Below the pieces are notes generated by a model, which had not been told where the DNA came from, ran no database searches, and was given only the letters and a program-made list of their open reading frames with translations. Shown in pieces: positions 2,462-43,709 of a DNA stretch of 46,760 bases. Where the stretch lies: IMG/VR virus record IMGVR_UViG_3300025782_000022, one strand, 5' to 3'. The first letter of the stretch is position 1. Every line of letters starts with the position of its first letter. This DNA is from a virus. The translations under genes and the position numbers were made by a program.

Positions 2462-2778
2462 GAAGCTACGGACAAGATCAAAACGGAAATTGGGTAGAAA
2501 TTACCGAAACTTCTTATATTTGGTTGGCAACATTGATTCAAACTTTGCGCTTAACCCAAGGGGAAAGCCCAGTTTATGGAAATTACGGCATACCAGGGCA
2601 AAACTCTGTTATGACCCAAATTGCGCCTGATGTTGCCTTAAATAGAACACAATCCCAGTTCGCACCTTATTTTGCAAGTTTAACAATTCTTAGACAACAA
2701 AACGCAACGCAACCAACTTACAATATTAAGGCGGTTTTCCAAAATGGGACGACAATCCAAACTACGGTAGTGAGTTAA
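2458..2778 (+). CDS. Small baseplate protein (106 aa; gpW/gp25-position)
   Basis: ATGA overlap with the upstream gene. It occupies the slot between the spike and the J-like wedge protein. Assignment is by synteny only. Confidence 0.5.
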   Translation: MRSYGQDQNGNWVEITETSYIWLATLIQTLRLTQGESPVYGNYGIPGQNSVMTQIAPDVALNRTQSQFAPYFASLTILRQQNATQPTYNIKAVFQNGTTIQTTVVS

Positions 2779-2781
2779 AAA

Positions 2782-4407
2782 ATGGCACAACTAACAACGG
2801 CAGGTGCAGTACCAACTAGCCCAACGGATTTATTAAACGCAGAAATAGCGGCGGCAACCGCATTATCCCCAGGATTGACCGCAAATTTGCCTGGTTCACT
2901 TGTCGAAGATATGGCATCAACCGCAGTCGGTGCGGTAGTTATTCAAGATCAAGCATTTGTTGACTTGGTTAATTCGATTTCCCCCTATACCGCTAACCCA
3001 TTTATTCTTTACGAATTGGGTGCGGTTTACGGCGTTACGCAAGGCGTAGGCAATAATACATCGGTTTATGTAACTTTTATTGGTACGCCTGGGTTTGTAA
3101 TTAGTGCAGGATTTGTTGTTTCTGATGGAACGCATCAATACACAGTACAAGACGGTGGAATTGTTTCTGCAAGTGGTCAAAGTGCCGCCCTTTACTGTTT
3201 GGCAAATAATGCAGGTTCTTGGGCAGTTCCAATTGGTACAGTCACAACTATCGTTACTTCCATACCATCAGGAGTTACCCTAACTTGCACAAATGAATCG
3301 GCAGGTGTTCCAGGCGCAACTGCTCAAACAATTCAAAGCTATCAGGCGCAAGTAATTCAGGCGGGACAAGCAATTGCCACAGGTATGCCAACATTCCTGA
3401 AAACTCAACTTCAAAAAGTATCGGGAGTTCAGCCAAATTTAATTTCTGTACGTCAACCAACATCTGGTACGGCTTGGGAAGTTATTGTTGGCGGTGGAGA
3501 CCCTTACGAAGTGGCAAATGCCATTTATACAGGATTGTTTGATATTTCTAATCTGGTTGGTTCTACTTTTCAAGTAACCAACATTACAAACGCATACCCC
3601 GCCGTTGTGACGATTAATCTGAATCATGGCTACACAACTGGTCAAGTTGTTCAAATTACTGGCGAAACTGGAATGTCAAACGTCAATGGCAATAATTTTG
3701 TTGCTATCGTTATTGATGAAAAAACTTTTAGCCTTAATGTAAAAATTTCAACCATAACTTGGTCAGGTGGTACGGTTACAGTTACAACAGCTTCCCCTCA
3801 TGGATTGCCAACTGGAACAACTTCGGGAACGATTTACGGATGTACCCCAAGTGCTTACAACGGTTCTTACACATTCACAAGAACAGGCGCAAGCACCTTT
3901 ACTTATCCTTTGGCATCAAACCCTGGAACTGCTACGGTTTTGGGTTATACGCCCTTTGATTCGGCTTCTCAAGGGGCTTGGACAAGCGGGGGTGTGGTAA
4001 CTCCTAACTTTAGGAATGTAACGGTATCAATCAATAATTACCCCGATACTTACAACATTACTTTTGTAAACCCTCCTCCTCAAACGGTGACGGTTACATT
4101 GCTTTGGAATACCATTGCGGTTAACTATGTATCAACAACTGCAATTGCTTCTACTGGCATACCTGCAATTGTTGCTTATATCAATTCAATTCCAGTAGGT
4201 CAGCCAATTAGTATTTTTGATTTACAAATGGCATTTACGACTGCGGTAGCTTCGTTATTAAATGTTAGCCTAATTTCAGAAATGCAATTTACAATAACAA
4301 TCAATGGGATAACAACTTCACCATCAAGTGGTCAGGGAGTAATTTATGGAGACCCTGAAAGTTATTTTGAAACGACTAATGGTTTGGTAACTATTACACA
4401 AGTATGA
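2782..4407 (+). CDS. Baseplate J-like wedge protein with two inserted small beta domains
   Basis: 541 aa with a J-like N-terminal region. It carries an insert ...ITNAYPAVVTINLNHGYTTGQVVQITG...FVAIVIDEKTFSL and a second insert, ITWSGGTVTVTTASPHGLPTG...YNGSYTFT, that is shared with two other virion proteins. Confidence 0.6.
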   Translation: MAQLTTAGAVPTSPTDLLNAEIAAATALSPGLTANLPGSLVEDMASTAVGAVVIQDQAFVDLVNSISPYTANPFILYELGAVYGVTQGVGNNTSVYVTFIGTPGFVISAGFVVSDGTHQYTVQDGGIVSASGQSAALYCLANNAGSWAVPIGTVTTIVTSIPSGVTLTCTNESAGVPGATAQTIQSYQAQVIQAGQAIATGMPTFLKTQLQKVSGVQPNLISVRQPTSGTAWEVIVGGGDPYEVANAIYTGLFDISNLVGSTFQVTNITNAYPAVVTINLNHGYTTGQVVQITGETGMSNVNGNNFVAIVIDEKTFSLNVKISTITWSGGTVTVTTASPHGLPTGTTSGTIYGCTPSAYNGSYTFTRTGASTFTYPLASNPGTATVLGYTPFDSASQGAWTSGGVVTPNFRNVTVSINNYPDTYNITFVNPPPQTVTVTLLWNTIAVNYVSTTAIASTGIPAIVAYINSIPVGQPISIFDLQMAFTTAVASLLNVSLISEMQFTITINGITTSPSSGQGVIYGDPESYFETTNGLVTITQV

Positions 4408-26286: not shown

Positions 26287-26838
26287 ATGGGCAGAAAAAG
26301 CAAGCTATCACCCGAACAATGGGAAGAAATTAAGAGAAGGCACATTGTCCTTGGGGAATCTGTTAACTCGCTTGCCAAGATGTATGGTGTTAACGAAAAA
26401 ACCATTCGGATATATTTAGGACAAAATAAAACTCCGAAGCAGTCCGAAACTCCGAACTCGGAACAAAAAACCATTAAGGAAGCCATTCAGGATGCTTCAA
26501 TAACGGTCATAGAAGCCCTCAAGTCAACAGGATTGCCCGAAGATGACCAAAGGATAGCCCTTGAACTTGCAAACACTCTGACAAGCGTTAAAAGCAAGCT
26601 GAGTGAGACTGCAAACAATAATCTAATCGTAGCCCTTGAGTTGTCCAAAATATCCAGGGAAGGCGTAAAGCATATAAAAAGTGAAACAGGCGTTGATGTT
26701 GATATGCTCAAGCAATTACAAGTATTAGGAAACGTCACAAACAATTTTGCGTTCCTGGGCAATGAAGTTAACAAGTCAGCCAAAGCCAAAATCGAAGTTG
26801 ATAACGACCTGCTGATCGAAGGCGGATTACCTTTGTGA
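26287..26838 (+). CDS. terS: Terminase small subunit (putative)
   Basis: N-terminal HTH-like KLSPEQWEEIKRRHIVLGESVNSLAKMYGVNEKTIRIYL. It lies directly upstream of, and overlaps, the large-subunit gene. Confidence 0.6.
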   Translation: MGRKSKLSPEQWEEIKRRHIVLGESVNSLAKMYGVNEKTIRIYLGQNKTPKQSETPNSEQKTIKEAIQDASITVIEALKSTGLPEDDQRIALELANTLTSVKSKLSETANNNLIVALELSKISREGVKHIKSETGVDVDMLKQLQVLGNVTNNFAFLGNEVNKSAKAKIEVDNDLLIEGGLPL

Positions 26839-28121
26839 AAATAATACTACCAACCCTGCACAGTGGTCAGGTCGATATATTTAAACAACGTACCAGGGCG
26901 AATATTGTCAGGTGCGGTCGGCGATGGGGAAAGACTAAGCTACTGGAAACAATCGCTTGTAATTCGGCGGCGTTTGGCGAATCGGTAGGAATATTTGCCC
27001 CTGAATACAGGCAGTTGCAAGAACCTTGGGATCATATTAAGGAAATCCTGCAACCTATTATTATTTCATCCTCCAGGAGTGAGGGAACAATTAAGGTTAG
27101 GTCAGCCAACGGAAAACAAGGCAAAGTTGATTTTTGGATACTGAATGACAATGAATTAGCAGGTCGAGGGCGGGAATATAACAAAACTTTGGTGGATGAG
27201 GCGGCGTTTACGAAGTCACCCCAAATGCTCGATATTTGGCGCAAGTCGATTAAGCCCACAATGTTGACCACTAAAGGCACTTCATGGGTATTTAGTACGC
27301 CCAACGGTATAGATGCCGAAAACTTCTTTTATGAGGCTTGCAACAACCCCGAAATGGGTTTTACGGAGTTTCATGCCCCAACCAGTACAAATCCTTATGT
27401 ACCCGCAGATGAACTCGAAAAAGAACGCCTGGTCAATCATCCCCTGGTATTTAAGCAGGAGTTTTTAGCCGAATTTGTAGATTGGTCAGGAGTTGCGTTT
27501 TTTTCGATGGACAAAATGCTTGTGGATGGCAAGCCAGTACCCTACCCTCAAAAATGCGATGGTGTTTATGCGGTGATTGATACTGCGGTGAAATCAGGCA
27601 AAGAACACGATGGAACTGCAATTATTTATATCGCAATGAATAAGTATTATGGTCATCCCCTAGTAATACTTGACTGGGATATTGTGCAAATTGACGGTGC
27701 AATGCTTGAAAATTGGATGCCAAGCGTTTTCAGCAGACTAGAAGAATTGTCCAAGGCAACCAGTTGCAAGCTAGGTGTAGTTGGCAGTTTTATTGAGGAT
27801 GCGGCGGCAGGTTCAATACTACTTCAGCAGGGGCGAACCAGGGGATGGAATACTCATGCAATAGATAGTAAACTCACTTCAGTTGGAAAAGATGAACGTG
27901 CAATTAGCGTTTCTGGTCATTTTCACCAAGAAAAGATTAAAATCAGCGATTATGCGTTCGATAAGGTCGTTAATTTTAAAGGCGCAAGCAGAAATCACTT
28001 GATTACTCAGGTCACAGGCTTTAGGATTGGCGATAAAGATGCGCACAAAAGAGCAGACGATTTGCTTGACGTTTTCACTTATGGGATAGCAATTGGAGTT
28101 GGTGATAAATATGGCTACTAA
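26835..28121 (+). CDS. terL: Terminase large subunit
   Basis: Walker A-like CGRRWGKTK, Walker B KTLVDEAAF, and a C-terminal nuclease-like region. It sits before the portal gene. Confidence 0.8.
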   Translation: MKIILPTLHSGQVDIFKQRTRANIVRCGRRWGKTKLLETIACNSAAFGESVGIFAPEYRQLQEPWDHIKEILQPIIISSSRSEGTIKVRSANGKQGKVDFWILNDNELAGRGREYNKTLVDEAAFTKSPQMLDIWRKSIKPTMLTTKGTSWVFSTPNGIDAENFFYEACNNPEMGFTEFHAPTSTNPYVPADELEKERLVNHPLVFKQEFLAEFVDWSGVAFFSMDKMLVDGKPVPYPQKCDGVYAVIDTAVKSGKEHDGTAIIYIAMNKYYGHPLVILDWDIVQIDGAMLENWMPSVFSRLEELSKATSCKLGVVGSFIEDAAAGSILLQQGRTRGWNTHAIDSKLTSVGKDERAISVSGHFHQEKIKISDYAFDKVVNFKGASRNHLITQVTGFRIGDKDAHKRADDLLDVFTYGIAIGVGDKYGY

Positions 28122-28130
28122 AGGATAAAT

Positions 28131-29543
28131 ATGTCATACGTTACAGTAAGTAATACTGCCGTTAATTCGGAATTGATGCAGATTTTAGAAGCCAATGAAA
28201 TCCAACCAGGTTCAGATTTAGGCTATCAGCTATGTAAGTTATTGTGGGAATTTCACCCACTTGGCGGGAAATTGGTTGAAAAGCCAATCAAATTAGCCCT
28301 ATCTAAGCCCCGAATCATTGCGGTGGATGCCGAACCCAAAGATATGCTTGTTGATGCGTTTAACAGGGAATGGGAAAGTCTTGGCGCAACGGCGCACATT
28401 CGTGACACCATGTTTCTGAAAAGGGTTTACGGTGCATCAGCTATCGTTTACGGCGCACCCAATATTCCAACAACAGAGCCAATTGACCCTTGGAAACTTT
28501 CCGAACTTAATTTGTATTTCAACCAATTAGACCCGCTGAACTTGGCGGGTTCTATCGTTACCAACCAGAACCCCAATGCTCCAGATTTTCAAAAGCCATT
28601 ACCTTACACAACTGCCGCAGGTCAACCTTATCATCCAAGCCGTTCAGTTGTGCTATTTAATGGCACTCCTATTTATTTAAGTTTCCAATCGTCAGGATTT
28701 GGTTTTACTGGTCGTTCAGTATTCCAAAGGGCTTTATACCCAATGAAGTCGTTTGTTCAGTCGATGGTGACTGATGACCTAGTGACGTTCAAGGCGGGAT
28801 TGTTAATTGCCAAGCAAAAACCCGCAGGTTCAATTGTTAATCGTTTGATGCAGACTGCCGCAGGTATCAAGCGCACCTATTTGCAGGAAGGCGTATCTGG
28901 CAATGTATTATCAATTGATATTGACGAAGCCATTGAAGCGTTAAATTTGACCAATACTGATACGGCGATGACAACGGCAAGAAATAATATTATTGCTAAT
29001 ATTGCCGCCGCCTCAGATGTTCCCGCTTTACTGTTAAAGGACGAAGCGTTCACCCAAGGATTTGGAGAAGGTACAGAAGATGCAAAAGCAATCGTCCAAT
29101 ACATTGATGGAATTAGGGAGGAAATGCACTCTCTTTATAAATTCTTTGACAAAATCGTTCAACATAGAGCATGGAATAAAGATTTCTTTGAAGCCGTTAA
29201 AAACAAATATCCTGAAACGTATGACAACAAAACGTATGAAGAAGCGTTCTATCATTGGCAGGAAAAATTCGATGCTTCATGGGAATCCCTCATGGAAGAA
29301 CCCGAATCAGAGAAGGTCAAAGTTTCGGATATTAAATTAAAAGGTATGACCGAAATACTGCGCACGATGTTGCCAGTTATTGACCCAATGAACAGGGCAA
29401 AATTGATGGAATGGGCGCAAGATAATATCAATGAAATGCCTGATATGTTCCAAAGCCACTTGGATTTGGATATTGAAAATCTAATGGATTATGAGCCGCC
29501 TACCCCAATGCCTGAACCTAAAGAACCTGCGGCAAAGGATTAA
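28131..29543 (+). CDS. Portal protein
   Basis: 470 aa, immediately after terL, with an acidic C-terminus. The family assignment (DUF1073-like) is tentative. Confidence 0.7.
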   Translation: MSYVTVSNTAVNSELMQILEANEIQPGSDLGYQLCKLLWEFHPLGGKLVEKPIKLALSKPRIIAVDAEPKDMLVDAFNREWESLGATAHIRDTMFLKRVYGASAIVYGAPNIPTTEPIDPWKLSELNLYFNQLDPLNLAGSIVTNQNPNAPDFQKPLPYTTAAGQPYHPSRSVVLFNGTPIYLSFQSSGFGFTGRSVFQRALYPMKSFVQSMVTDDLVTFKAGLLIAKQKPAGSIVNRLMQTAAGIKRTYLQEGVSGNVLSIDIDEAIEALNLTNTDTAMTTARNNIIANIAAASDVPALLLKDEAFTQGFGEGTEDAKAIVQYIDGIREEMHSLYKFFDKIVQHRAWNKDFFEAVKNKYPETYDNKTYEEAFYHWQEKFDASWESLMEEPESEKVKVSDIKLKGMTEILRTMLPVIDPMNRAKLMEWAQDNINEMPDMFQSHLDLDIENLMDYEPPTPMPEPKEPAAKD

Positions 29544-29545
29544 TT

Positions 29546-30214
29546 GTGCTATTTAAAAACTTAATAAATAATACATTTGTTGTTGCAATTGATGGATTGG
29601 AACAAGATTATTTGCGAGATAAAAATTATCGAATAGCTAGGGATTCTGATTTTAAAGAATCGGAACATCCAAGAGATGCTGACGGTAAATTTGCATCATC
29701 TGGAAACACCAAAAGCCAAGAAGGTACTTTGGAAAGAATGAAAAAAGAAGTTCCAGAATCAGTTGAGAATGAAATATTTGGTGAAACTGGATATATATAT
29801 TACACACCCCATAGACCAATTGAAAATTCTCAAGAAAAAATGTTAGGCACAAAAATTAAACCTTTACATGAAAGAGTTTTTGTATCTGATAAACCATTAA
29901 GTTCTGATAAATTAAATGACATTGAAGCAATACCAATTTCTCAAGAATCAAAGCATCAATTTGCTAAAGAATTAGCCGATTCGGGAGTTGTTGGGATGAT
30001 GAACAAAGATGGTAAAAGATTTTCTTTTGTTCATAAAAGCACAAAACACGATGGAAAAATACAAATAACCTATTATGATAAAAGTGGTGCAATTCTTGAT
30101 AGTCAACATAATGATAGAGCATCGGCTATTGAAGAATTAATTGAAGGTGGATTTATGAAAATTTTGCCTGAAGAAAAAGTAGGTTCATTGATTCAAAAAG
30201 TTATGGTGGGTTAA
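29546..30214 (+). CDS. EHPRD-xx-GKF leader protein 1 (222 aa, unknown C-terminal domain)
   Basis: GTG start. DFKESEHPRDADGKFASSG at 29663..29692. The N-terminal roughly 55 aa is paralogous to the next gene. Confidence 0.7.
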   Translation: MLFKNLINNTFVVAIDGLEQDYLRDKNYRIARDSDFKESEHPRDADGKFASSGNTKSQEGTLERMKKEVPESVENEIFGETGYIYYTPHRPIENSQEKMLGTKIKPLHERVFVSDKPLSSDKLNDIEAIPISQESKHQFAKELADSGVVGMMNKDGKRFSFVHKSTKHDGKIQITYYDKSGAILDSQHNDRASAIEELIEGGFMKILPEEKVGSLIQKVMVG

Positions 30215-31387
30215 ATGAAATTTAAAAATATTAAAACAGGCAATATTATTAATCTTCATGAACGGCTTATGCCGCTTTTTAAGTTTGTAATTCGTTCAGA
30301 CGAATATGTTTTTGTAAACGATGATTTTAAAGAACATGAACACCCAAGAGACCCAAGCGGAAAATTTACTTCTGGCGGTGGTGGTGGGGGCGCATCAGTT
30401 GAGCCTACCAAGACAGAAAAGCCAAGTTTGGAATTGTTAAAAGCGTATAACAAAGGCTTGAAAGAAATGCCAGGTTCGCCTAAGCAAAAGGAAACTTTGC
30501 AAGAAATCGAAAAGCTAAGAAGTTCTGAACCTGCACCAACTGAAAAACCCGCAGAAAAAAAAGGCAGAGGATTTGAAAAAGGCGGCGTTGATAAGCATGG
30601 ATTTGAAAGATCACCAGGACTAACCCCAAAACAAAGGCGAGTTGAAGGAACTTTTTACAACGCCATCAGAACCAATCAGCAACAATTGATTTCTGATTAT
30701 TGGCAAGCAATGAAGAAAGAAAAGTTTTTCAATACTATTGATGCTGACCAGGTTAAGAAATTAAGCCCTGCGTTCAGAAAAGATATGTCGATGGTTGGCG
30801 CAGTCCATGAGCCAAGTTCTCATTTGTCAAAAGTCATTTACAAACAAGCGTTAGAGAAAAAAGCCAGAGAAAACGATAAAAGCCCAACAATGTTTACAGC
30901 AGGTGGAAGCGGTTCAGGAAAGTCGGCTACTTCCCCCCTTGCGGCATCTATGTTTGGATTGAAGGACGATAACCTGGTTTACGATTCGGTTATGTCAACA
31001 TTCAAATCGTCCAAGCGCAAAGTTGACGAAGCACTTGATATGACCGAAGGTGATGCGGTGATTGTTTACACCAATACGCCTATTGAAAGGGCTTTAAAGT
31101 TCAACGCAATGCGTTCTAGGTCTGTATCTATTGACGTTCTAATTGAAGCGCATATGGGCGCATCTAAGACGGTGCATGAGATGCACGAACATTACAAAGA
31201 CAATCCGAGAGTTAAGATGCAAATTATCAATAATTTTGACGAACCGCATAATGTGCATTTGGGTACATTAAAAGGCGTATTTAAATACGACCCCGCAGTT
31301 ACCAGGCAAAAATTGGAACGCCAAGCTAAAGAAATGTTTGCTAAAGGCGAAATAGGTAAGGACAAGTTAAAAACACTTCTAGGGTAG
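30215..31387 (+). CDS. EHPRD-xx-GKF leader protein 2 with C-terminal zeta-toxin-like P-loop kinase domain
   Basis: DFKEHEHPRDPSGKFTSGGGGGG (30338..30367). ...VHEPSSHLSKVIY... is followed by the Walker A TAGGSGSGKS (30902..30925). Confidence 0.65.
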   Translation: MKFKNIKTGNIINLHERLMPLFKFVIRSDEYVFVNDDFKEHEHPRDPSGKFTSGGGGGGASVEPTKTEKPSLELLKAYNKGLKEMPGSPKQKETLQEIEKLRSSEPAPTEKPAEKKGRGFEKGGVDKHGFERSPGLTPKQRRVEGTFYNAIRTNQQQLISDYWQAMKKEKFFNTIDADQVKKLSPAFRKDMSMVGAVHEPSSHLSKVIYKQALEKKARENDKSPTMFTAGGSGSGKSATSPLAASMFGLKDDNLVYDSVMSTFKSSKRKVDEALDMTEGDAVIVYTNTPIERALKFNAMRSRSVSIDVLIEAHMGASKTVHEMHEHYKDNPRVKMQIINNFDEPHNVHLGTLKGVFKYDPAVTRQKLERQAKEMFAKGEIGKDKLKTLLG

Positions 31388-31440: not shown

Positions 31441-31620
31441 ATGAGTATTGATTTTGAAAAAGCTAAAACAGAATGGTTAAAAACTCTCAACGGTAAAAGT
31501 TTGGAGCAATACAAAGCCGAAAATGACCAACGCATTTTGCTTGCGATGGAGAAAATCGGCAACGAACCCAAAAATAAAAAGCTATGGGACGAAGCTGAAA
31601 GCATGGAAGATTCTGAATAG
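31441..31620 (+). CDS. Small protein (59 aa) missed by the ORF track
   Basis: MSIDFEKAKTEWLKTLNGKSLEQYKAENDQRILLAMEKIGNEPKNKKLWDEAESMEDSE, followed by a strong terminator. Confidence 0.55.
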   Translation: MSIDFEKAKTEWLKTLNGKSLEQYKAENDQRILLAMEKIGNEPKNKKLWDEAESMEDSE

Positions 31621-31644
31621 TTTAGAAAACAAAAGACCACAAAT

Positions 31645-31677
31645 AACCCCCTTTAGAAATATTGGGGGTTTTTTTTC
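31645..31677 (+). terminator. Intrinsic terminator
   Basis: aaccccc-12 nt loop-gggggtt followed by a T8 run. Confidence 0.8.
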
Positions 31678-31690
31678 GACCAAAAAGCAA

Positions 31691-31749
31691 CAAATTGCAA
31701 ATAAATAATACTTATCCTATTGTGTTTATGCTTAATAGGTATAAAATAA
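31691..31749 (+). promoter_or_regulatory. Island element E1 (inverted repeat plus GGTATAAAATAA box)
   Basis: caaattgcaaataaataatacTTATCCTATTgtgtttatgcttAATAGGtATAAaataac. The box lies 46 nt before the next ATG. Confidence 0.6.
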
Positions 31750-31785
31750 CAATTGTGGTGGTTAAGAAGTTAAAGGAGAAAAATC

Positions 31786-31935
31786 ATGGAACTAGCAAGA
31801 TACGGTTACTTGGTGATTCATGGAATTACGGAAGTTCGGGCGATATACCTGGCGGCAAAAATCAAAAGGCATTACGGTCGTGCGAGAGCCGCTTTAACGA
31901 TGATTAGAAGATACGAAGCCACAGGTCATTTTTAA
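31786..31935 (+). CDS. Small basic protein (49 aa), first gene after E1
   Basis: SD aaaggagaaaaatc ATG. MELARYGYLVIHGITEVRAIYLAAKIKRHYGRARAALTMIRRYEATGHF. Confidence 0.55.
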   Translation: MELARYGYLVIHGITEVRAIYLAAKIKRHYGRARAALTMIRRYEATGHF

Positions 31936-31954
31936 CACTTTGAAAGGAAATCAA

Positions 31955-32311
31955 ATGAAAGTTGCAGAAAAAATCAATTACCTTGGAATTTACATGGAAG
32001 CTACTCGTGCAGGTTGTGCGGCAGTCAATGGCATGGACGTTACGCCCGCAATTTTTACAAATGATGGCAAAGAATTCTTTTACGTTGCTGATGGTGCTTG
32101 CGGATTTGCATGGGTTGTCATTCGTGACATAAAGTTTGCAAACTTCCTGAAAAAAATGGGTGTCGGTCGCAAAAGATACAACGGCGGTTATTTGATCTGG
32201 GTATTTGATTACAACCAGAGTATGCAGAAAAAAGAAGCATACGCCGAAGCGTTTGCGCAGGTTCTAATAGATAACGGCATTAATGCTTATGCTGAGAGAA
32301 AATTAGATTAA
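31955..32311 (+). CDS. Hypothetical protein (118 aa)
   Basis: Start set at the ATG after gaaaggaaatcaa. The ORF-track TTG start reads through the SD. Contains GACGFAWV...GGYLIW...QSMQKKEAYAEAFAQVL. Confidence 0.7.
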   Translation: MKVAEKINYLGIYMEATRAGCAAVNGMDVTPAIFTNDGKEFFYVADGACGFAWVVIRDIKFANFLKKMGVGRKRYNGGYLIWVFDYNQSMQKKEAYAEAFAQVLIDNGINAYAERKLD

Positions 32312-32316
32312 TCAAT

Positions 32317-32334
32317 GCCCCTGCGGGGGCTTTT
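32317..32334 (+). terminator. Short GC hairpin plus T4 (weak terminator/attenuator or processing site)
   Basis: gcccc-tgcg-ggggc-tttt between two island genes. Confidence 0.4.
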
Positions 32335-32347
32335 AAAAGGAAATCAA

Positions 32348-32506
32348 ATGACGTACGAACAAGCAAAAAAAATAGTGGGAAGACAACCCAAATGGGCAAT
32401 TAAAAATATGCTCAAAGCCCTGCAAATGCTCCCTTGGTTAAATACTGATGAAGACAACGAAAGATTACTGGCTTGCAAAATTTACTTGAAAGGAAATAAA
32501 GAATGA
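32348..32506 (+). CDS. Small protein (52 aa)
   Basis: ATG after aaaaggaaatcaa; [52 protein letters not shown]. Confidence 0.6.
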
Positions 32507-32721
32507 AATTTACCAAAGCAAAAAATATTTGGCAAATGACCAAAGATGAAATGGCAAAGTTGCCAAAAGGTCAATGGGTTTATGCAGGTGAAAAATCAAG
32601 TTTAGGCAGGTTTTACGGAGTTCGGAAAAGTGGAGTTGTAGTTGTTGCTTGGAAGGACAACGCAAAAAATAACGATTACTTCGATTACTGCAAAAAACTT
32701 TACCAATATTCTTTAAATTAA
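32503..32721 (+). CDS. Small protein (72 aa)
   Basis: ATGA coupling; SD gaaaggaaataaaga. Confidence 0.65.
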
Positions 32722-32778
32722 TTTGTTGCAATTATGCCTAATCAGTATATTTATATGCCAATTAGGTATAAAATAAAG
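32718..32778 (+). promoter_or_regulatory. Island element E2
   Basis: ttaatttgttgcaaTTATGCCTAATcagtatatttatatgccaATTAGGTATAAaataaagg. The box lies 44 nt before the next ATG. Confidence 0.6.
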
Positions 32779-32810
32779 GCTTAGAAGGTAATAAAAAAAG
32801 GAAATTAATC

Positions 32811-33077
32811 ATGTATGTAGTTTATGAACCAAATATCCAATTAAATGCAAAAAATCAAAAAGTTATTGAAATTTGTAGAAATGGTGGATACGTTAAATAT
32901 CAATTGGAAAAAAACTATTTCGGTCAAGAAAAATTTCAAATTCGTGTTTATGATTTAAATGGTGATGTAGTGAAAGGGTTTGGGTATAAAGCAATTTATA
33001 ACGCAATTGCAAGTGGTATTTTGGTTAAAAAAGAAATTCCAAATACAAGTGCTTATGCAACTATTTGGGCAATTTAA
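32811..33077 (+). CDS. Small protein (88 aa)
   Basis: SD aaaaggaaattaatc ATG. Confidence 0.65.
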   Translation: MYVVYEPNIQLNAKNQKVIEICRNGGYVKYQLEKNYFGQEKFQIRVYDLNGDVVKGFGYKAIYNAIASGILVKKEIPNTSAYATIWAI

Positions 33078-33099
33078 TTAATTATTGAAAGGAAATCAA

Positions 33100-33285
33100 A
33101 TGGAAACAATTTTTGAACACTTCCCAATAACAAACAGCCAAGTAATCGGTATCGCCCCTGACGGAACAACATTAAGAACCTGGAACGAAGGCGAAAGAAC
33201 TTTCATGGAGACTTACGGTTACACCCCTCCAATTGGCGAATTCGGTATCAGATATGGTTTAGTAATTGTGGTTGAAACAACTTAA
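33100..33285 (+). CDS. Small protein (61 aa)
   Basis: ATG after gaaaggaaatcaa; METIFEHFPITNSQ... Confidence 0.6.
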   Translation: METIFEHFPITNSQVIGIAPDGTTLRTWNEGERTFMETYGYTPPIGEFGIRYGLVIVVETT

Positions 33286-33297
33286 AAAGGAAATCAA

Positions 33298-33456
33298 ATG
33301 GAACTCCAACAAAATCAATTTTGGCAAACCAGAGCAAGGGGAACAAACGACCAGGAATATCAAATTTACCTGGCTTGTGCTGATGACGGTAACGGTGGTG
33401 ACATTGGCAGAAATGGTGAACCGCTTTTAACTTATGAGGAGTGGTTAGCAAACTAA
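33298..33456 (+). CDS. Small protein (52 aa) missed by the ORF track
   Basis: ATG after aaaaggaaatcaa; MELQQNQFWQTRARGTNDQEYQIYLACADDGNGGDIGRNGEPLLTYEEWLAN. Confidence 0.55.
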   Translation: MELQQNQFWQTRARGTNDQEYQIYLACADDGNGGDIGRNGEPLLTYEEWLAN

Positions 33457-33458
33457 AA

Positions 33459-33518
33459 ATAATTTGTTGTAAATATACCAAACTAGAATAAACAATGCTA
33501 ATTTGGTATAAAATAAAG
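33459..33518 (+). promoter_or_regulatory. Island element E3
   Basis: ataatttgttgtaaaTATACCAAActagaataaacaatgctaaTTTGGTATAaaataaagt. The box lies 52 nt before the next ATG and has an extended -10-like TGgTATAAA. Confidence 0.6.
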
Positions 33519-33558
33519 TCTGAGTTAGGAAATTAAACAAACAAACAAAGGAAATAAA

Positions 33559-34056
33559 ATGAAAAGAACACCAAGTATCCCCGCCCAAGCCGCTACGATG
33601 ATTAGAAATTATCTAAAAGCAAACAACATTGCAGGTAGCGTAAAAAGTGAAATTTATAGCATGGGCAGTAGCGTTAATGTTTACGTTACTGACATAGAGC
33701 CAGAAGTATTAGACAAATTAAGAACCTTTGCTAATCAATTCCAATACGGTCGTTTTGACGGTATGCAAGACCTTTACGAATACACAAATAGTAGAGATGA
33801 CCTGCCCCAAGTCAAATACGTTTTTGTTAACAACACACTTAGCCCTGAACTTAGTCAAGAGATTTGGAACTTTGCCAGAAACTATTACGCAGGAATGGAA
33901 GATGCGCCAGAAGATCAAGCCCTGGCAAGCAAGTTTTATAACCCACAAATGAATGAATACGGCAACACCATTATTTGGATGTTGTTCGATGGTAAATACA
34001 TGAGGGATGGTTACTGGAATTTTGCGAAAGGTATTGAGGAAGTTTTAGAGGCTTAA
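33559..34056 (+). CDS. Hypothetical protein (165 aa), possibly an LPD-type (polyvalent-protein-associated) domain
   Basis: ...IAGSVKSEIYSMGSSVNVYVTD...QYGRFDGMQDLYEYTN...PQVKYVFVN. From memory this resembles a domain seen in conjugative-element and phage polyvalent proteins. Unverified. Confidence 0.6.
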   Translation: MKRTPSIPAQAATMIRNYLKANNIAGSVKSEIYSMGSSVNVYVTDIEPEVLDKLRTFANQFQYGRFDGMQDLYEYTNSRDDLPQVKYVFVNNTLSPELSQEIWNFARNYYAGMEDAPEDQALASKFYNPQMNEYGNTIIWMLFDGKYMRDGYWNFAKGIEEVLEA

Positions 34057-34073
34057 TTTTTAACAATCAACCT

Positions 34074-34096
34074 GCCCCCCAAGTGGGGGCTTTTTA
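34074..34096 (+). terminator. Intrinsic terminator closing the island
   Basis: gccccc-caagt-gggggc followed by ttttt. Confidence 0.75.
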
Positions 34097-34098
34097 TT

Positions 34099-34320
34099 AT
34101 GGAAACAAAAACACGAAACAGGGGCGCATTTGGATACGTTCCAAATCCTAGCGAAATAATACTTGCCAGGGGTAATTTATCTCAAGCCAAATGCGCTTCT
34201 TTAATTTATACTACCCAAGTTCGTTGGAGCAATTACGAAAACGGCAAAAGTCGAATACATCCTGCGATGTGGGAATTATTTCTTGAAAAACGAAAAAGGC
34301 TAAGTAATGACGTTTTATGA
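34099..34320 (+). CDS. Small HTH (XRE-like) DNA-binding protein (73 aa)
   Basis: LSQAKCASLIYTTQVRWSNYENGKSRIHPAMWELF is a helix-turn-helix-like pattern. It overlaps the MuF-like gene start. Confidence 0.55.
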   Translation: METKTRNRGAFGYVPNPSEIILARGNLSQAKCASLIYTTQVRWSNYENGKSRIHPAMWELFLEKRKRLSNDVL

Positions 34321-35113: not shown

Positions 35114-37561
35114 ATGCCATTTGAATCGGAAGCCCAAAGAAAAGCTATGTATGCCGCCGCAAGCGGTCATGGCAATATTGGCATCCCTAAAGAAGTGGCA
35201 AAGAAATTTATTAAACACTCAGAAGACGGCGATATTCCTGAAGAATCTACGCCCCTTGCAACTCCCGAATTTAAAGAAGATGATGCTGACCCTTGTTGGG
35301 AAGGTTACAAACAATTAGGAATGAAGCAAAAAGGCGGCAAAGAAGTGCCCAATTGCGTTCCAGAGGATGATTCTGAGGCTTGGGAGACCAAGGAAGGTAA
35401 GAATAAAAAAGGCGGTTTAAATGCCAAAGGCAGGGCTTCTTACAACAAAGAGCATGGCGCACATTTAAAAGCCCCTCAACCTGAAGGCGGGTCAAGGAAA
35501 GAATCATTTTGCGCCCGAATGTCAGGCATGAAAGAAAAGCTAACTTCTGACAAAACAAAACACGACCCAAATTCCAGGATTAATTTAGCATTAAAAAAAT
35601 GGAAGTGCGATGCTGATTGGGATAGTTCCAAAGTTCAATCAGAATTAAAAGGCTTGTCAGCCAAATTAGCAGAAATTACTAAAAGTATTACAACTTTAAA
35701 AGCTGATGATTTAGCCGTTGAAAGAATTGCAACTGGTTCAAAATCTGATGCTATGCCAATTGACAAAGATGCAGGGGCATTAGGTCGTGCCGCAGGAATA
35801 ATGTTTTTGACCAATGACGGCAAAGTATTATTGATTCGCAGGGGAGATGGTGGCGATTATCCTCAAACTTGGGCAGTACCAGGCGGTCATCAAAATAAAG
35901 AAGATGCAAACTTAGAAGAAGCGGCTAGGCGTGAATGTTTTGAAGAAACAGGTATCAAGTACGAAGGCAAGTTGGAAGTATTATTTGATGACGGTCAATT
36001 TTGTACTTATATTGCCAGAAATTTTGAGCAAGTTCCAGTAACTTTGAACCATGAATCAACTGGATTTGATTGGTGTCATGTTGATAATCCCCCAATGCCT
36101 TTGCACCCAGGACAAAATATTTGTTTCAAAATTGCAAGTGCAAAAACAGAATTCGATTATGCTGAATTAATTAGGCAAGATTTATTGCCAAGCCCTCAAA
36201 TGTATGCTAATGTTATGCTATTAGCTATTCGCATTACAGGAACAGGGTTAGCTTATCGTTCAAGTATTGGTGAGCACGTTTGGCGTGATTCCAGTTTATA
36301 TTTGAATGATGACTTTTTAAAGCGTTGTAATGGGTTGATTGTGATAATGGATCACCCTGAAACTGCGGTTTTGACTTCCAAGGAATTCAAGGACAGAGCA
36401 GTTGGAAGTATTATTCTGCCTTATATTAAGGGAGATGAAGTTTGGGGTATTGCGAAAATCTACGACCAAGATGCGGTAAACACCATTTTGACCGAAGAAG
36501 TTAGCACTAGCCCATCTGTTGTTTTTGACCAAACAGCAGGTAACACGACACTAACGACTGAGAATGGAGAGCCACTCTTGATCGAAGGTGTACCATTTCT
36601 TTTAGATCATATTGCTATCGTAACTGAAGCAAGGGGTTCTAAAGGAGTATGGGACAAGGGTGGCGAACCCGCAGGAGTATTATTAACTAACCAAGAGGTA
36701 TCTGAAATGACAGACAACAAAGTAGAGCCGAAAGCAGATGCTCAAGGCGATAAACTAGATGCCATTCTTTCGGCTCTCAGCTCCATGAGTGTGAGAATTG
36801 ATGAGATGGAAAAAAATCTTCCCGCCCCTCCACTCGTTACTGCCGCTGATAAAAAGCGCAAAGACGAAGATGCGAAAATGGACGATGATGATGAGGAATC
36901 AGAATCAGAAGCCAAACACTTCATGGAACGCAAAATGGATTCCAAAAAGCGTAAAGATGAAGATATGGAAGAAAAGCACATGGAATCAAGAAAAGCAGAT
37001 AAGCATCGTAAAGATGATGATGACGAAGATGACATGAAAAAAGCCAAGAAAGATGCCGAAGGCTCTGACATGGGCGAAGAAAAAATGCCCTCAGGTGAAA
37101 TGAAGCCTGATGACGATGATGCCAAGAAGGATGAAGAAGCTATGAAGATGGACGAAGCCGCCGCAGAATACGCAGATGCACAAGCAAAATGCGATTCAGT
37201 TTTAGCCGCTTTTGGTAAGTCAGCTTCCCGCCCACTACAAGGCGAATCATTGATGGCTTATAGGAAACGTCTTCTCAGAGGATTGCAAGCGTATTCTGAT
37301 AGCTACAAGGATATTAACCTTGCAACTATAAAAGATGCAAAATTACTCGAATTAGCTGAAAAGCAAATTATGAATGATGCAATGACTGCCGCAAGAACAT
37401 CTAGTCATGTTCCTGGAGATCAATTGATTGCTATTCAATCAAGAGATTCAAGCGGTCGTACAATCACTAAGTATCGTGGTTCAATGGAAGCATGGCTTGG
37501 CGATTTCAAAGTTCCTCCACAAAGAGCAACTACTTTCCATACACCTAACAACCAACGCTAA
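35114..37561 (+). CDS. Multidomain head protein (815 aa): N-terminal small motifs, Nudix hydrolase domain, prohead protease/scaffold-like (DUF2213-like) region, K/D/E-rich low-complexity segment, C-terminal scaffold-like tail
   Basis: Nudix box GGHQNKEDANLEEAARRECFEETGI (aa 257-281). ...LIVIMDHPE...VGSIILPYIKGDEVWGIAKIYD. Charged repeat region at aa 578-685. It lies between the MuF-like and capsid genes. Confidence 0.75.
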   Translation: MPFESEAQRKAMYAAASGHGNIGIPKEVAKKFIKHSEDGDIPEESTPLATPEFKEDDADPCWEGYKQLGMKQKGGKEVPNCVPEDDSEAWETKEGKNKKGGLNAKGRASYNKEHGAHLKAPQPEGGSRKESFCARMSGMKEKLTSDKTKHDPNSRINLALKKWKCDADWDSSKVQSELKGLSAKLAEITKSITTLKADDLAVERIATGSKSDAMPIDKDAGALGRAAGIMFLTNDGKVLLIRRGDGGDYPQTWAVPGGHQNKEDANLEEAARRECFEETGIKYEGKLEVLFDDGQFCTYIARNFEQVPVTLNHESTGFDWCHVDNPPMPLHPGQNICFKIASAKTEFDYAELIRQDLLPSPQMYANVMLLAIRITGTGLAYRSSIGEHVWRDSSLYLNDDFLKRCNGLIVIMDHPETAVLTSKEFKDRAVGSIILPYIKGDEVWGIAKIYDQDAVNTILTEEVSTSPSVVFDQTAGNTTLTTENGEPLLIEGVPFLLDHIAIVTEARGSKGVWDKGGEPAGVLLTNQEVSEMTDNKVEPKADAQGDKLDAILSALSSMSVRIDEMEKNLPAPPLVTAADKKRKDEDAKMDDDDEESESEAKHFMERKMDSKKRKDEDMEEKHMESRKADKHRKDDDDEDDMKKAKKDAEGSDMGEEKMPSGEMKPDDDDAKKDEEAMKMDEAAAEYADAQAKCDSVLAAFGKSASRPLQGESLMAYRKRLLRGLQAYSDSYKDINLATIKDAKLLELAEKQIMNDAMTAARTSSHVPGDQLIAIQSRDSSGRTITKYRGSMEAWLGDFKVPPQRATTFHTPNNQR

Positions 37562-38209: not shown

Positions 38210-39235
38210 ATGTCAGGATTTGCACCGTCATTCGTCACAGTTAACCCCCACTTTATGTTGCCTGAGTTAATCATGCAATATAGCTTGGCTTCTGGCGCAT
38301 TTACAACACTAGCAACTGAAAACCCAATGCCCCGCCTTGGTGAAGCAGACTTGTACGTTTATGCTAAGAAAATCCAGTTAACTTCACAAGTTCAGTCTAA
38401 TCAATCACAGTTTAATCAATTGCCTAGCGCATCGGTTATCCCATCAATGATTAGCACCGCAACTTACCGTATGTCAACTCGTGCTCAGTACGATAACTTT
38501 GATGAAGCCGCAACTGGCGTTTGGGGCTATGCGCTTCCAGAAGCTATGCGTTTAGGCGCAAGACAAGGTATCGCACAACAAATGCGTAATGCGTTGTTAT
38601 ACGGTTTCAACCCTGCAAACGGCGAAGGCTTGATTAATACATCAGGCGCAACCGCAGTTAATTTGGGTTCTGATACAAACGGTAACACAGGTTATTCCAC
38701 TTGGGATAGTGGTCAACTTGCTCAGTATATGCTGAACATGATTGGCGCACTCAAGGTTCGTACCCTGCAAATCGGTCAACCTTTGCGTTTAGTATTCTTA
38801 GCACCACAAAGATTCATCAGCCAAATTTCATATTCTGGCGTTGTTTCTTTAACCCAGTTCCAACGAATTGGCGCAGGTGTAGAGACTGCCGCAGGTTTGA
38901 TTGAGACTGTTGCAAAGTGGGCAGGTGGTGATGATGTAGTTTTCGCCGCTGATGACACTTTAATTGGTCAAGGTTCTGGCGGTACAGATGCGATCATTTT
39001 GATTGCTCCTGAACTCAAGATTCCTAAAGCCAACAACAAGATCAACACCAACGTATTTGCTACATTGACACCTAATATCACCGCAACTTCTTTAATGTTG
39101 ACAGATGTTAGCGCACCAACAGAAATACCTACCCCCATCGCTGATGGCGGTATTACAACTCTGTACACAATGCGTTCAACTTCTGGTTGGGGTATTCGTC
39201 CTGAAGCATTGACAATCCTTTCTGCCGCATATTAA
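38210..39235 (+). CDS. Major capsid protein (putative)
   Basis: 341 aa with a strong SD (aaggaga) and a terminator hairpin downstream. Synteny fits. The family (DUF2184-like) is a guess. Confidence 0.7.
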   Translation: MSGFAPSFVTVNPHFMLPELIMQYSLASGAFTTLATENPMPRLGEADLYVYAKKIQLTSQVQSNQSQFNQLPSASVIPSMISTATYRMSTRAQYDNFDEAATGVWGYALPEAMRLGARQGIAQQMRNALLYGFNPANGEGLINTSGATAVNLGSDTNGNTGYSTWDSGQLAQYMLNMIGALKVRTLQIGQPLRLVFLAPQRFISQISYSGVVSLTQFQRIGAGVETAAGLIETVAKWAGGDDVVFAADDTLIGQGSGGTDAIILIAPELKIPKANNKINTNVFATLTPNITATSLMLTDVSAPTEIPTPIADGGITTLYTMRSTSGWGIRPEALTILSAAY

Positions 39236-42410: not shown

Positions 42411-43709
42411 ATGCCTAATATTGTTAATGTTTCGGTCACTCAGCAGGTTGCGAGTGCGCCATCAACTTTGCAAAGAACAGGTGCAATTGTTAGCCAAGGC
42501 GGTACAACCTTGGCTTCAGGTACTACTCAATTATTGACTTCAGTTAGCGGTTTAAATAGCATTTTAAGTGGTGCTATTACTCTTTCCGCTATGACTTGGA
42601 GTGCAAACGTAGTATCAGCAACAACTGCAACTCCTCATGGTATTCCAAACGGTCAAATAGTATCTGCAATAATTACTGGCGTAACTCCATCGGGTTACAA
42701 CGGCACTTATCAAATTACTTCAACTGGTGCTAATACATTTACTTATGCTTTAAGCGTTAACCCTGGTAGCTCAACTGTTCAGGGTGCGGTTACTTTGTCC
42801 GATGTTTCAGAATTGGTTGCACAAGTTACAACTTATTTTGCACAAGGCACAGGAAATGCGGTTTATGTACTAGAACTTGGAACTGGTTCACCTGCGGCGG
42901 GTGTAACGGCTTTAGAAGCCTACATTGCTAACCCAACGGTTAAGTTTTATAGTTACTTGTTACCTTTGCAGTGGGATGTAGAAACAACTGCGCCAACAAT
43001 GGCTAGGTTGTATGTCAGCACGACTTCTGAGTTATATTTCTATGTAACCACAACAACTGCTACTTACACCAATTGGACAGGTATCAAATCAGTATTTGCA
43101 ACACTTCAAACCCCAACTGCTCCAGTTACAGAATTTGATGCGGCGGCGATGTTTGCCATTACTTTGGGATACAACCCAGGTAGTTCCAACCTGGCTTCAC
43201 CGCTTGAGTACACATTCTTATATGGCGTAACTCCTTATTCAACTCTAACAAATGCGCAACAAACTTCTTTGAGTGCGGTAGGTGTAAACTGGGTTGGAAC
43301 AGGCGCACAAGGTCAAATTAGCAATACTTTGATTCAAACTGGTAGTTTCATGGATTTAAACCCATTTAACTATTGGTATTGCGTTGATTGGTTATCAATA
43401 AATGTCTCAATAGCACTTGCGGCGGCAATTATCAACGGTAGCAATACACCAACAAATCCTTTGTATTACAACCAAGCAGGTATAAATACCCTGCAAAAAG
43501 TTGCACAAGCTACGGTTAATAGTGGTATTTCTTTTGGTTTAATACTTTCACCCGCAACGGTCAATGCAGTATCATTCCAAACGTATATTACTCAAAACCC
43601 AAGCAATTATGCGGCAGGTATTTATAACGGTCTAAGTTGCACATTTGTGCCACTCAGAGGATTTACATCTATTACCATTTACTTGACTGCAAGTAATATT
43701 CCAGTTTAA
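42411..43709 (+). CDS. Tail sheath protein (putative) with inserted small beta domain
   Basis: 432 aa, directly upstream of the tube, chaperone and tape-measure genes. SD aaggagg. The insert MTWSANVVSATTATPHGIPNG...YNGTYQITSTGANTFTY is shared with baseplate proteins. Confidence 0.65.
   Translation: MPNIVNVSVTQQVASAPSTLQRTGAIVSQGGTTLASGTTQLLTSVSGLNSILSGAITLSAMTWSANVVSATTATPHGIPNGQIVSAIITGVTPSGYNGTYQITSTGANTFTYALSVNPGSSTVQGAVTLSDVSELVAQVTTYFAQGTGNAVYVLELGTGSPAAGVTALEAYIANPTVKFYSYLLPLQWDVETTAPTMARLYVSTTSELYFYVTTTTATYTNWTGIKSVFATLQTPTAPVTEFDAAAMFAITLGYNPGSSNLASPLEYTFLYGVTPYSTLTNAQQTSLSAVGVNWVGTGAQGQISNTLIQTGSFMDLNPFNYWYCVDWLSINVSIALAAAIINGSNTPTNPLYYNQAGINTLQKVAQATVNSGISFGLILSPATVNAVSFQTYITQNPSNYAAGIYNGLSCTFVPLRGFTSITIYLTASNIPV

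Follow-up and report, generated by a model that had tools for sequence, protein, structure and literature searches.

Two adjacent phage proteins with a common N-terminal motif, one of them bearing a zeta-toxin-type kinase domain, in a variable island between portal and MuF-like genes

Background

Why should two proteins with unrelated C-terminal domains, encoded one after the other directly behind a phage portal gene, begin in the same way? The question is posed by two open reading frames (ORFs), here called ORF A and ORF B, in a 46,760-nucleotide stretch of viral DNA (IMG/VR virus record IMGVR_UViG_3300025782_000022; the whole stretch is referred to below as the window). A first-pass annotation, made from the letters of the sequence without database searches, took the two for a paralogous pair with a common leader, saw a zeta-toxin-like kinase domain in the second, and suggested that the leader serves as a targeting or processing signal of proteins packaged into the head and ejected with the DNA. 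Proteins injected with the DNA act before phage gene expression and are thus prime candidates for first-line counter-defence and host takeover; injected phage effectors are hard to recognize from sequence.

Head effectors carried on MuF or portal proteins, polyvalent proteins, MuF polymorphic toxins and zeta-like MuF fusions are already known from comparative genomics (PMC5512222, PMC9503650, PMC5576092, PMC3482391). Here we place the ORF B kinase in the subclass of ng_zeta1, the zeta1 toxin of the Neisseria gonorrhoeae epsilon1/zeta1 system (Rocker et al. 2018, PMC5923241), and map its active site; we recognize a short, extremely widespread delimiter or tag motif; and we describe a variant of the system that is split and tagged by leaders, and that occupies a defined variable island. 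From these comparisons we think it fairly probable that ORF A and ORF B belong to a polymorphic head-cargo system, in which tagged, swappable effectors would be packaged into the head and delivered with the DNA, the effector of ORF B being an ng_zeta1-type kinase.

Results and discussion

A motif common to ORF A and ORF B

The back-translated motif EHPRDxxGKF matches the window exactly twice, at 29663..29692 in ORF A and 30338..30367 in ORF B, and in none of the other window frames; the chance expectation from 100 dinucleotide-preserving shuffles of the window is 0.00 matches. These coordinates span the 10-residue core and not the longer strings quoted in the first-pass annotation, which had otherwise located both copies correctly. 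The common leader ends in DFKExEHPRDxxGKF, past which ORF A and ORF B diverge: BLASTP of one against the other aligns the N-termini alone (E=3e-7, 32% identity, 116 columns), and similarity at the DNA level amounts to 51 nucleotides (76% identity), with synonymous differences. The description of the two as paralogs therefore stands for the first ~50 residues and falls for the unrelated C-terminal domains, while the complete divergence claimed past the motif is borne out. The shared leader of ~55 amino acids (aa) proposed as the conserved unit likewise has to be divided. It does end in the motif, and the conserved element is a unit of 14 residues, [FW]xExEHPRDxxGKF, followed by a Gly/Ser linker; the ~36 aa before it are lineage-specific. 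Leaders like that of ORF A were found in relatives L016, L063, L108 and L042 only, and that of ORF B recurs on a 715-aa protein (L001), on kinases (L009/L070) and on a 309-aa protein (L011). The Pro/Lys/Glu-rich linker already seen in ORF B is present as described, and its length and content differ between homologs. Both genes do lie right after the portal gene, which is identified by PF06381 and phrog_146 and is itself preceded by the large terminase gene.

The C-terminal domain of ORF B is a zeta-toxin-type kinase

A family profile was built from the C-terminal 263 residues of 15 of the 27 ORF B homologs found. Against the PDB it matches ng_zeta1 (6EPH/6EPG/6EPI) with E=5e-18 over nearly the whole length of the domain. 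The AlphaFold2 model of the kinase domain, with a predicted local distance difference test (pLDDT) score of 93.5, has ng_zeta1 as its top Foldseek match in the PDB (6eph_B, E=1e-11, template modelling (TM) score 0.77; 0.75-0.77 for 6eph/6epg/6epi), followed by zeta (3q8x/1gvn), AvrRxo1 (4z8q), PezT (2p5t) and Pnk polynucleotide kinases. The Pfam Zeta_toxin model, PF06414, is marginal on ORF B itself, scoring 21.2 bits on the full protein (below the 22.3 cutoff, and restricted to the P-loop) and 23.3 bits on the isolated domain, and it matches 13 of the 15 family members, the best with E=1e-8. ORF B thus ends in a zeta-toxin-type kinase domain that belongs to the ng_zeta1 subclass. A housekeeping kinase, suggested by the label 'thymidylate kinase' on the sole, weak phage match found by tblastn, was rejected because profile and fold evidence point to zeta toxins.

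The active site of ng_zeta1 can be followed through the alignment. In that enzyme Asp56, placed upstream of the P-loop, serves as the catalytic base; contacts to the UDP-sugar are made by Lys59, Arg175 and Arg181; and the Walker A lysine is Lys115, whose replacement (K115A) abolishes toxicity (PMC5923241). The ORF B counterparts, D178, K181, R300, R302 and K236 (Table 1), are invariant or nearly so in 20 aligned homologs, with D178, K236 and R302 invariant and R300 nearly invariant. The catalytic Asp of ORF B lies upstream of the P-loop, as in ng_zeta1, whereas classical zeta and PezT have it downstream. The zeta-toxin-like domain, the position of its Walker A sequence and the conservation of the catalytic Asp and the Walker A Lys had all been anticipated in the first-pass annotation, and all three hold. 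Going by the conserved residues, the domain is very probably active. By analogy with ng_zeta1, the most likely reaction is phosphorylation of a UDP-activated sugar, for example a peptidoglycan precursor, which is our best guess at a substrate whose exact nature is uncertain. Zeta toxins, ng_zeta1 included, are normally the toxins of toxin-antitoxin (TA) systems and cause lysis (PMC5923241).

The C-terminal domain of ORF A gave nothing useful in Pfam, PHROGs or NCBIfam and no significant PDB fold match by Foldseek, and its model has a single match in BFVD, an uncharacterised homolog. Judged by the predicted structure, this alpha/beta domain has no recognisable fold. In homologs P0028-P0032 it sits behind differing N-termini.

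The motif is widespread and precedes many effector domains

A scan of IMG/VR with the back-translated core gave at least 122 matches in more than 117 stretches; the counts in this and the following two paragraphs, up to the profile search, are those among the matches listed. All 122 listed matches lie in frame within long ORFs. Flanking positions were tallied for the 99 of 105 unique instances with enough flanking sequence, and conservation extends beyond the search pattern: F or W occupies position -4 in 100% of them, E occupies position -2 in 94% and S position -1 in 65%, and the tail is rich in Gly and Ser. Every synonymous codon is used, including those of both Ser families, at loci whose GC content ranges from 31 to 74%. 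This spread places the conservation, and the selection behind it, at the protein level, and DNA-level recombination was rejected as its cause for this reason.

Pfam families were tallied on the two sides of the motif. Upstream are portal proteins (20 with PF06381 and 2 with PF05136), DUF2213 scaffolds (8), MuF (4), NUDIX (3), the 2',5' RNA ligase (2H) superfamily (3) and ART-PolyVal (2). Downstream are Zeta_toxin (10), topoisomerase IB (9), ADP-ribosyltransferases (ADPrib_exo_Tox 8, ART 4, ART-PolyVal 1), NUDIX (5), LPD3 (4), AAA_33 (4), PBECR nucleases (3), and Acb1, RelA_SpoT, GNAT and ParB_N (1 each). The early expectation that the motif would be found on other cargo domains across phages is thus met many times over, behind portal, MuF and scaffold domains.

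Of 88 ORFs with complete 5' ends, 35 have the motif no more than 60 aa from the start (for example MKWNESEHPRD and MTFVEEEHPRD), and in all 80 ORFs with complete 3' ends it is at least 39 aa from the stop. By position it belongs to the module downstream of it.

A profile of 15 motif windows matched 4,015 clusters (E<=1e-3) among 1.84e9 representatives. The top matches are giant proteins with up to 15 copies confirmed by regular expression (18 HMMER stretches) at a median spacing of 263 aa, about the length of one domain; the giants share the domain repertoire, with at least four portal families. Among them are P0036 (7,334 aa; 18 HMMER stretches, 15 confirmed copies) and P0102 (5,313 aa; 15 HMMER stretches). 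The giants carry many copies of the variant W[DE]E.KHPRGEHG[KR][FW] at domain-sized spacing, and most of the intervening domains have no Pfam match. A tblastn search with a short motif query found 11 phage records, annotated 'portal protein', and the same query found no match in 72,556 plasmids. The motif has no entry in Pfam, NCBIfam or the PDB, and its profile found no structure among PDB sequences. Full-text searches for motif strings turned up no description of it: 'hpr' has 0 occurrences in PMC5512222, and the MuF-toxin paper (PMC5576092) mentions neither the motif nor a zeta kinase.

Cultured phages with the motif include Burkholderia phage phiE131, Faecalibacterium phage FP_Brigit and the Pseudomonas syringae phage Orimi01 (L133, PP179326.1). 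In gp4 of Orimi01, a 703-aa 'hypothetical protein' encoded at 2270-4381, a portal is followed by an acidic linker, SDADFDENKHPRSDDGKFGSNG and an ART-like domain (LYRGM, FLSTS, YEKEVLLP), and the next gene encodes a MuF-like 'putative head protein'. Orimi01 would suit as an experimental model.

The kinase is repeatedly fused to head proteins

Homologs of the ORF B kinase occur in four settings. Stand-alone kinases follow a similar leader and the motif (P0001, P0002, P0004-P0008, P0015, P0027); others are joined through the motif to the C-termini of portal proteins (P0003, P0016, P0019; loci L021, L028, L079); one lies behind a NUDIX domain and the motif (P0014); and others directly follow a MuF/SPP1-gp7 domain, with no motif between (P0009-P0012, P0017, P0018, P0020, P0021, P0023). 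All stand-alone and NUDIX-fused kinases thus carry the motif, as do the portal-fused ones (3 of 3 with a recognised portal); it is present in 0 of the 9 MuF fusions, which represent only about three related lineages. Fusion of the kinase to portal, MuF (nine proteins) and NUDIX supports an association with the head, and from these domain fusions we infer that ORF A and ORF B themselves would be packaged there.

In another homolog, P0024 (550 aa), GHPFRGNQY appears twice, at residues ~20 and ~363, in place of EHPRDxxGKF; this is possibly another version of the delimiter, with the form HP[RF]..G.[FY]. In GTDB the kinase family is confined to 11 contigs, all from metagenome-assembled genomes.

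The 59-aa ORF that follows the kinase gene in the window has homologs (31-33% identity) immediately after the portal-fused kinases in L021 and L028, and likewise in L080. No such homolog follows the kinases of L009, L070 and L079, and the two co-occur in 2 of 4 lineages. The 59-aa ORF itself matched no family, and the neighbours of the kinase matched no antitoxin family. The 59-aa ORF makes a weak candidate for the role of immunity or partner protein, and may be merely a linked small gene.

A hypervariable island between portal and MuF-like genes

By gene order, ORF A and ORF B open a hypervariable island, probably of cargo genes, that lies between the portal and MuF-like genes of a ~47-kb myovirus. 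The cultured relatives, Actinobacillus phage pPE4 and Klebsiella phage Chronis (portals ~46% identical), have the order terminase, portal, MuF-like, NUDIX/DUF2213, capsid, and nothing between portal and MuF. Among metagenomic relatives with the same backbone, what is carried in this gap varies: nothing in L022; a single tagged ADP-ribosyltransferase (E=2e-17) in L063; a single tagged small protein in L016; ORF A and the 715-aa protein, which has the ORF B leader and a different junction, in L001; a portal-motif-kinase fusion followed by small ORFs in L021 and L028; and ORF A, ORF B and small ORFs in the window and L042. The ~36-aa leaders are confined to this phage lineage.

The 715-aa protein (L001:10670-12817) occupies the slot of ORF B and shares its first ~37 residues; there GKHWVTLHGKDPRTGRGGPGQHVLISGSG replaces the HPRD motif. 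Similar strings, RWITVHGRAIPI and RFVTIEGRVVFI, occur in two giant motif-bearing proteins, P0035 and P0087, and strings of this type may be a second junction motif. The C-terminus of the 715-aa protein was read by eye as an ADP-ribosyltransferase; neither Pfam nor BLASTP against a true ADP-ribosyltransferase confirmed this, and the reading was dropped.

The junctions at the upstream end of the island are tight. The TAA stop of ORF A abuts the ATG of ORF B in the same frame (30212..30217), and two nucleotides, with a change of frame, separate the portal stop from the GTG of ORF A (29541..29548); portal and tagged kinase form a single ORF in relatives P0003, L021 and L028. Together these observations suggest translational coupling, and gene fusion or fission at the junctions of portal, ORF A and ORF B.

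The portal gene marks the upstream edge of the island and the MuF-like gene the downstream edge, and orthologs of the latter flank the island in all relatives; the MuF-like protein of the window has no Pfam Phage_Mu_F match. Within the cluster of small ORFs, the 165-aa LPD29-like protein is a solo gene (LPD29 is a large polyvalent-protein-associated domain). It has homologs in L011, L100 and L108, and in L108 the similar sequence directly follows leader and motif. Beyond the island, the 815-aa protein is a further case of an enzyme fused to a head-interior protein, and its L001 ortholog (696 aa) is without the DUF6321 insert. A protease domain could not be demonstrated in it, a search of PDB sequences having matched NUDIX alone; a weak match to the PHROG 'head maturation protease' was seen (E=3e-4).

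The window as a whole resembles most or all of a ~47-kb myovirus genome (40% GC), with a head module of the PF06381-portal / MuF / DUF2213 / PF09950-capsid type, a major capsid protein gene at 38210..39235, a tail sheath gene at 42411..43709 and, going by the annotation of relative L001, a RecT/YqaJ recombination module. Megablast of the region against 50,697 phage records gave no match, and there is no near-identical GenBank phage.

Table 1. Features of the locus, with window coordinates
Feature	Coordinates	Strand	Evidence or remark
Terminase large subunit	26835..28121		Precedes portal gene
Portal protein, 470 aa	28131..29543	+	PF06381 Phage_portal_3, E=1.4e-15; phrog_146, E=3e-52
ORF A, 222 aa	29546..30214	+	GTG start behind AAGGA Shine-Dalgarno; leader, motif, C-terminal domain
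ORF A lineage-specific leader, aa 1-35 (MLFKNLINNTF...)	29546..29650	+	AlphaFold2 pLDDT <50
Motif copy 1, FKESEHPRDADGKF, aa 36-49	29651..29692	+	Pattern match; flanks fit survey consensus
ORF A C-terminal alpha/beta domain, aa ~56-222	29711..30211	+	AlphaFold2 pLDDT 70-87
ORF B, 390 aa	30215..31387	+	ATG start; leader, motif, Pro/Lys/Glu-rich linker, zeta-type kinase
ORF B lineage-specific leader, aa 1-37 (MKFKNIKTGNIINLH...)	30215..30325	+	Leader also in relatives
Motif copy 2, FKEHEHPRDPSGKF, aa 38-51, then GGGGGG	30326..30367	+	Pattern match
Low-complexity Pro/Lys/Glu-rich linker, aa 52-127	30368..30595	+	Read from sequence
ng_zeta1-like zeta-toxin-type P-loop kinase domain, aa 128-390	30596..31384	+	Profile, AlphaFold2, Foldseek
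D178, predicted catalytic base	30746..30748	+	HMMER-aligned to ng_zeta1 Asp56
K181	30755..30757	+	HMMER-aligned to ng_zeta1 Lys59
Walker A GGSGSGKS, aa 230-237	30902..30925	+	K236 aligned to ng_zeta1 K115
R300 and R302, phosphate-binding patch	31112..31120	+	Aligned to ng_zeta1 Arg175 and Arg181
59-aa acidic helical ORF	31441..31620	+	Immediately 3' of kinase gene
Small-ORF cluster, completing the variable island	31441..34320	+	Absent from close relative L001 and cultured relatives
LPD29-like protein, 165 aa	33559..34056	+	LPD29, E=6e-5, under gathering score
Helix-turn-helix-like 73-aa ORF	34099..34320	+	Part of small-ORF cluster
MuF/SPP1 gp7-like head morphogenesis protein, 267 aa	34307..35110	+	phrog_324 'head morphogenesis', E=2e-26
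815-aa protein, DUF6321 + NUDIX + DUF2213 (Pa193 gp24-type scaffold)	35114..37561	+	Pfam matches

A possible route into the head, and the alternatives

If ORF A and ORF B are head cargo, their constant N-terminus would consist of the lineage leader of ~36 aa, the 14-residue motif and a flexible Gly/Ser or Pro/Lys linker, with an exchangeable effector at the C-terminus. The motif would then be a widespread protein-level tag, placed at the N-terminus of effector modules tied to the interior of the phage head, and might carry its module into the procapsid by binding to something inside the head, for instance the MuF-like protein, the portal or the scaffold. The portal crown, the MuF-type minor head proteins and the scaffolds all belong to the interior of the head. 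The DUF2213 protein gp24 of phage Pa193 has been detected in virions, bound to the inner capsid surface (PMC11456595). In portal fusions the motif could possibly be the site of proteolytic release as well. The cargo would subsequently leave with the DNA, and the ORF B kinase might weaken or block cell-wall synthesis, either in the newly infected cell or, late in infection, in the cell producing the phage.

The persistence of the motif at the very N-terminus of stand-alone genes, and its absence from the MuF fusions of the same kinase, point to a tag intrinsic to the cargo. Its retention at portal junctions, and the way it punctuates giant proteins, point to a role as a release site. From these patterns the docking or targeting role and the release role do not seem to be exclusive.

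Several observations weigh against this account. Covalent fusions to portal, MuF and scaffold retain the motif, and a protein so joined would seem to have no need of a targeting tag. AlphaFold2 predicts disorder for the motif region (pLDDT <50), and no solved structure contains it. The portal families found with the motif number at least four, and the phages infect very different hosts, which makes a single conserved docking partner hard to identify. Clustering of neighbouring genes by BLAST found MuF in ~36% of motif loci and portal in 45%, on short loci and by an insensitive method. The 715-aa protein of L001 keeps the leader without the motif, so that leader and motif are separable. As to the kinase, the residue that gives ng_zeta1 its UNAM specificity, Asn75, is not conserved, falling in an insertion of ng_zeta1 relative to the phage profile, and in its place the phage family has an invariant AVHEPSS motif of its own; the substrate may therefore differ from that of ng_zeta1. 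We hold to a head-cargo tag of some kind as the fairly probable reading, and regard as possible, if doubtful, the bolder claim that tailed phages have in the motif a near-universal, portable tag for capsid incorporation, which a conserved feature inside the procapsid recognises.

The best surviving alternative is that the motif is purely a proteolytic site, at which a prohead or host protease frees effectors from their anchors and splits the giant proteins, with no part in targeting. Its position is what such a site would have: exactly at domain boundaries, with a flexible linker after it, and, in giant proteins, in up to 15-18 copies spaced about a domain apart. Since the portal stays fixed in the virion, cargo fused to it could reach the host only if cut off, and it is the portal-kinase fusions that keep the motif and the MuF-kinase fusions that are without it. 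There is also the precedent of phage T4, whose prohead protease trims head-internal proteins. The strong conservation of the motif at the extreme N-terminus of stand-alone genes speaks against such a role, however, as cleavage there frees nothing; 14 near-invariant residues across differing portal and protease families far exceed what a cleavage site typically needs; and no peptidase domain consistently co-occurs in cis. We consider a purely proteolytic role unlikely.

Alternatively, the motif might act after ejection or otherwise outside the capsid, as a handle for a host factor (chaperone or protease), as an aid to refolding past the tail, or as a structural hinge, in which case its link to head genes would merely reflect where effectors are encoded. 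The diversity of phages and hosts suits a universal partner better than a phage-specific one, the motif is predicted to be disordered, and some stand-alone tagged genes are not beside a recognisable head gene. Against this, its upstream fusion partners are overwhelmingly head-interior proteins (portal, scaffold and MuF), and the query that found phage records drew a blank in plasmids, even though similar effector domains are found in the polyvalent proteins of conjugative elements (PMC5512222). On this evidence an action outside the capsid looks decidedly improbable to us. We find it very hard to believe that ORF B is unpackaged, as a late zeta-type toxin 'moron', be it a lysis helper that would stop peptidoglycan synthesis in the producing cell or a TA or exclusion module with the 59-aa ORF as antitoxin: the usual lytic TA role of zeta toxins, the small conserved ORF after the kinase in two lineages and the many small accessory ORFs of the island would suit it, but in-frame fusions of this kinase to portal and MuF proteins recur, the small ORF is inconstant and matches no antitoxin family, and epsilon antitoxin genes normally lie upstream of zeta genes.

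Implications

If the motif does tag head-internal cargo, it would provide a simple sequence handle for listing such effectors across thousands of phages, among them ADP-ribosyltransferases, topoisomerase IB, zeta kinases, NUDIX, Acb1-like and RelA/SpoT-like enzymes, along with numerous uncharacterised domains, that of ORF A included. Domain limits within giant polyvalent proteins could likewise be read from it, and engineered delivery of proteins by phage capsids might become feasible. Were it a near-universal incorporation tag, the motif alone would identify head-packaged, injected effectors and could be used to load foreign proteins into capsids. The kinase adds to the ng_zeta1 subclass a branch borne by phages, and one may ask whether phages make use of UDP-sugar phosphorylation at entry or at lysis.

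Comparison with known systems

The capsid-targeting sequence of phage T4 is a short N-terminal peptide, present on unrelated head-internal proteins and on Alt, which guides them into the prohead and which the prohead protease afterwards cuts off. Head cargo of T4, including an ADP-ribosyltransferase, is injected with the DNA, and the signal is specific to T4-like phages. The motif described here would be analogous in being a short N-terminal peptide common to unrelated cargo proteins. It has no sequence similarity to the T4 signal, spans many phage groups, can also be internal and in many copies per protein, and is known here from sequence position and comparison.

The polyvalent and solo head effectors (Iyer et al. 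2017, PMC5512222; 2022, PMC9503650) draw on the same repertoire of ART, zeta-like kinase, NUDIX, 2H/LigT, PBECR, LPD and ParB domains, with MuF and portal fusions and predicted head packaging and co-injection; zeta-toxin-like kinases fused to MuF in phages are explicitly noted (PMC5512222). ORF A and ORF B differ in having one effector each, where a polyvalent protein needs at least two, and the HPR..G.F delimiter is not in the text of PMC5512222. Motif-bearing relatives elsewhere are polyvalent, reaching 7,334 aa.

The best match to ORF B by both profile and structure is ng_zeta1, with which it shares the upstream catalytic Asp and residues corresponding to Lys59, Lys115, Arg175 and Arg181. 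The two are ~20% identical, and ORF B is without the ~130-aa C-terminal extension of ng_zeta1 and does not conserve Asn75, having the family's AVHEPSS instead. The setting differs as well: ORF B lies behind a tag in a phage head module and has no recognised epsilon-type antitoxin gene upstream, whereas ng_zeta1 belongs to a plasmid TA operon.

The MuF polymorphic toxins (Jamet et al. 2017, PMC5576092) combine a constant N-terminal delivery part with polymorphic C-terminal effectors near the portal and terminase genes. ORF A and ORF B depart from this plan in that the MuF domain (PF04233) is absent from both, the MuF-like gene lying 3-4 kb downstream; the constant part is instead a short leader with the motif, and there is only a candidate for an immunity gene. 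The likeness extends to the relatives, in which the same leaders, between portal and MuF, bear kinase, ADP-ribosyltransferase or unknown domains, and four kinase homologs (P0009-P0012) have exactly the MuF-toxin architecture.

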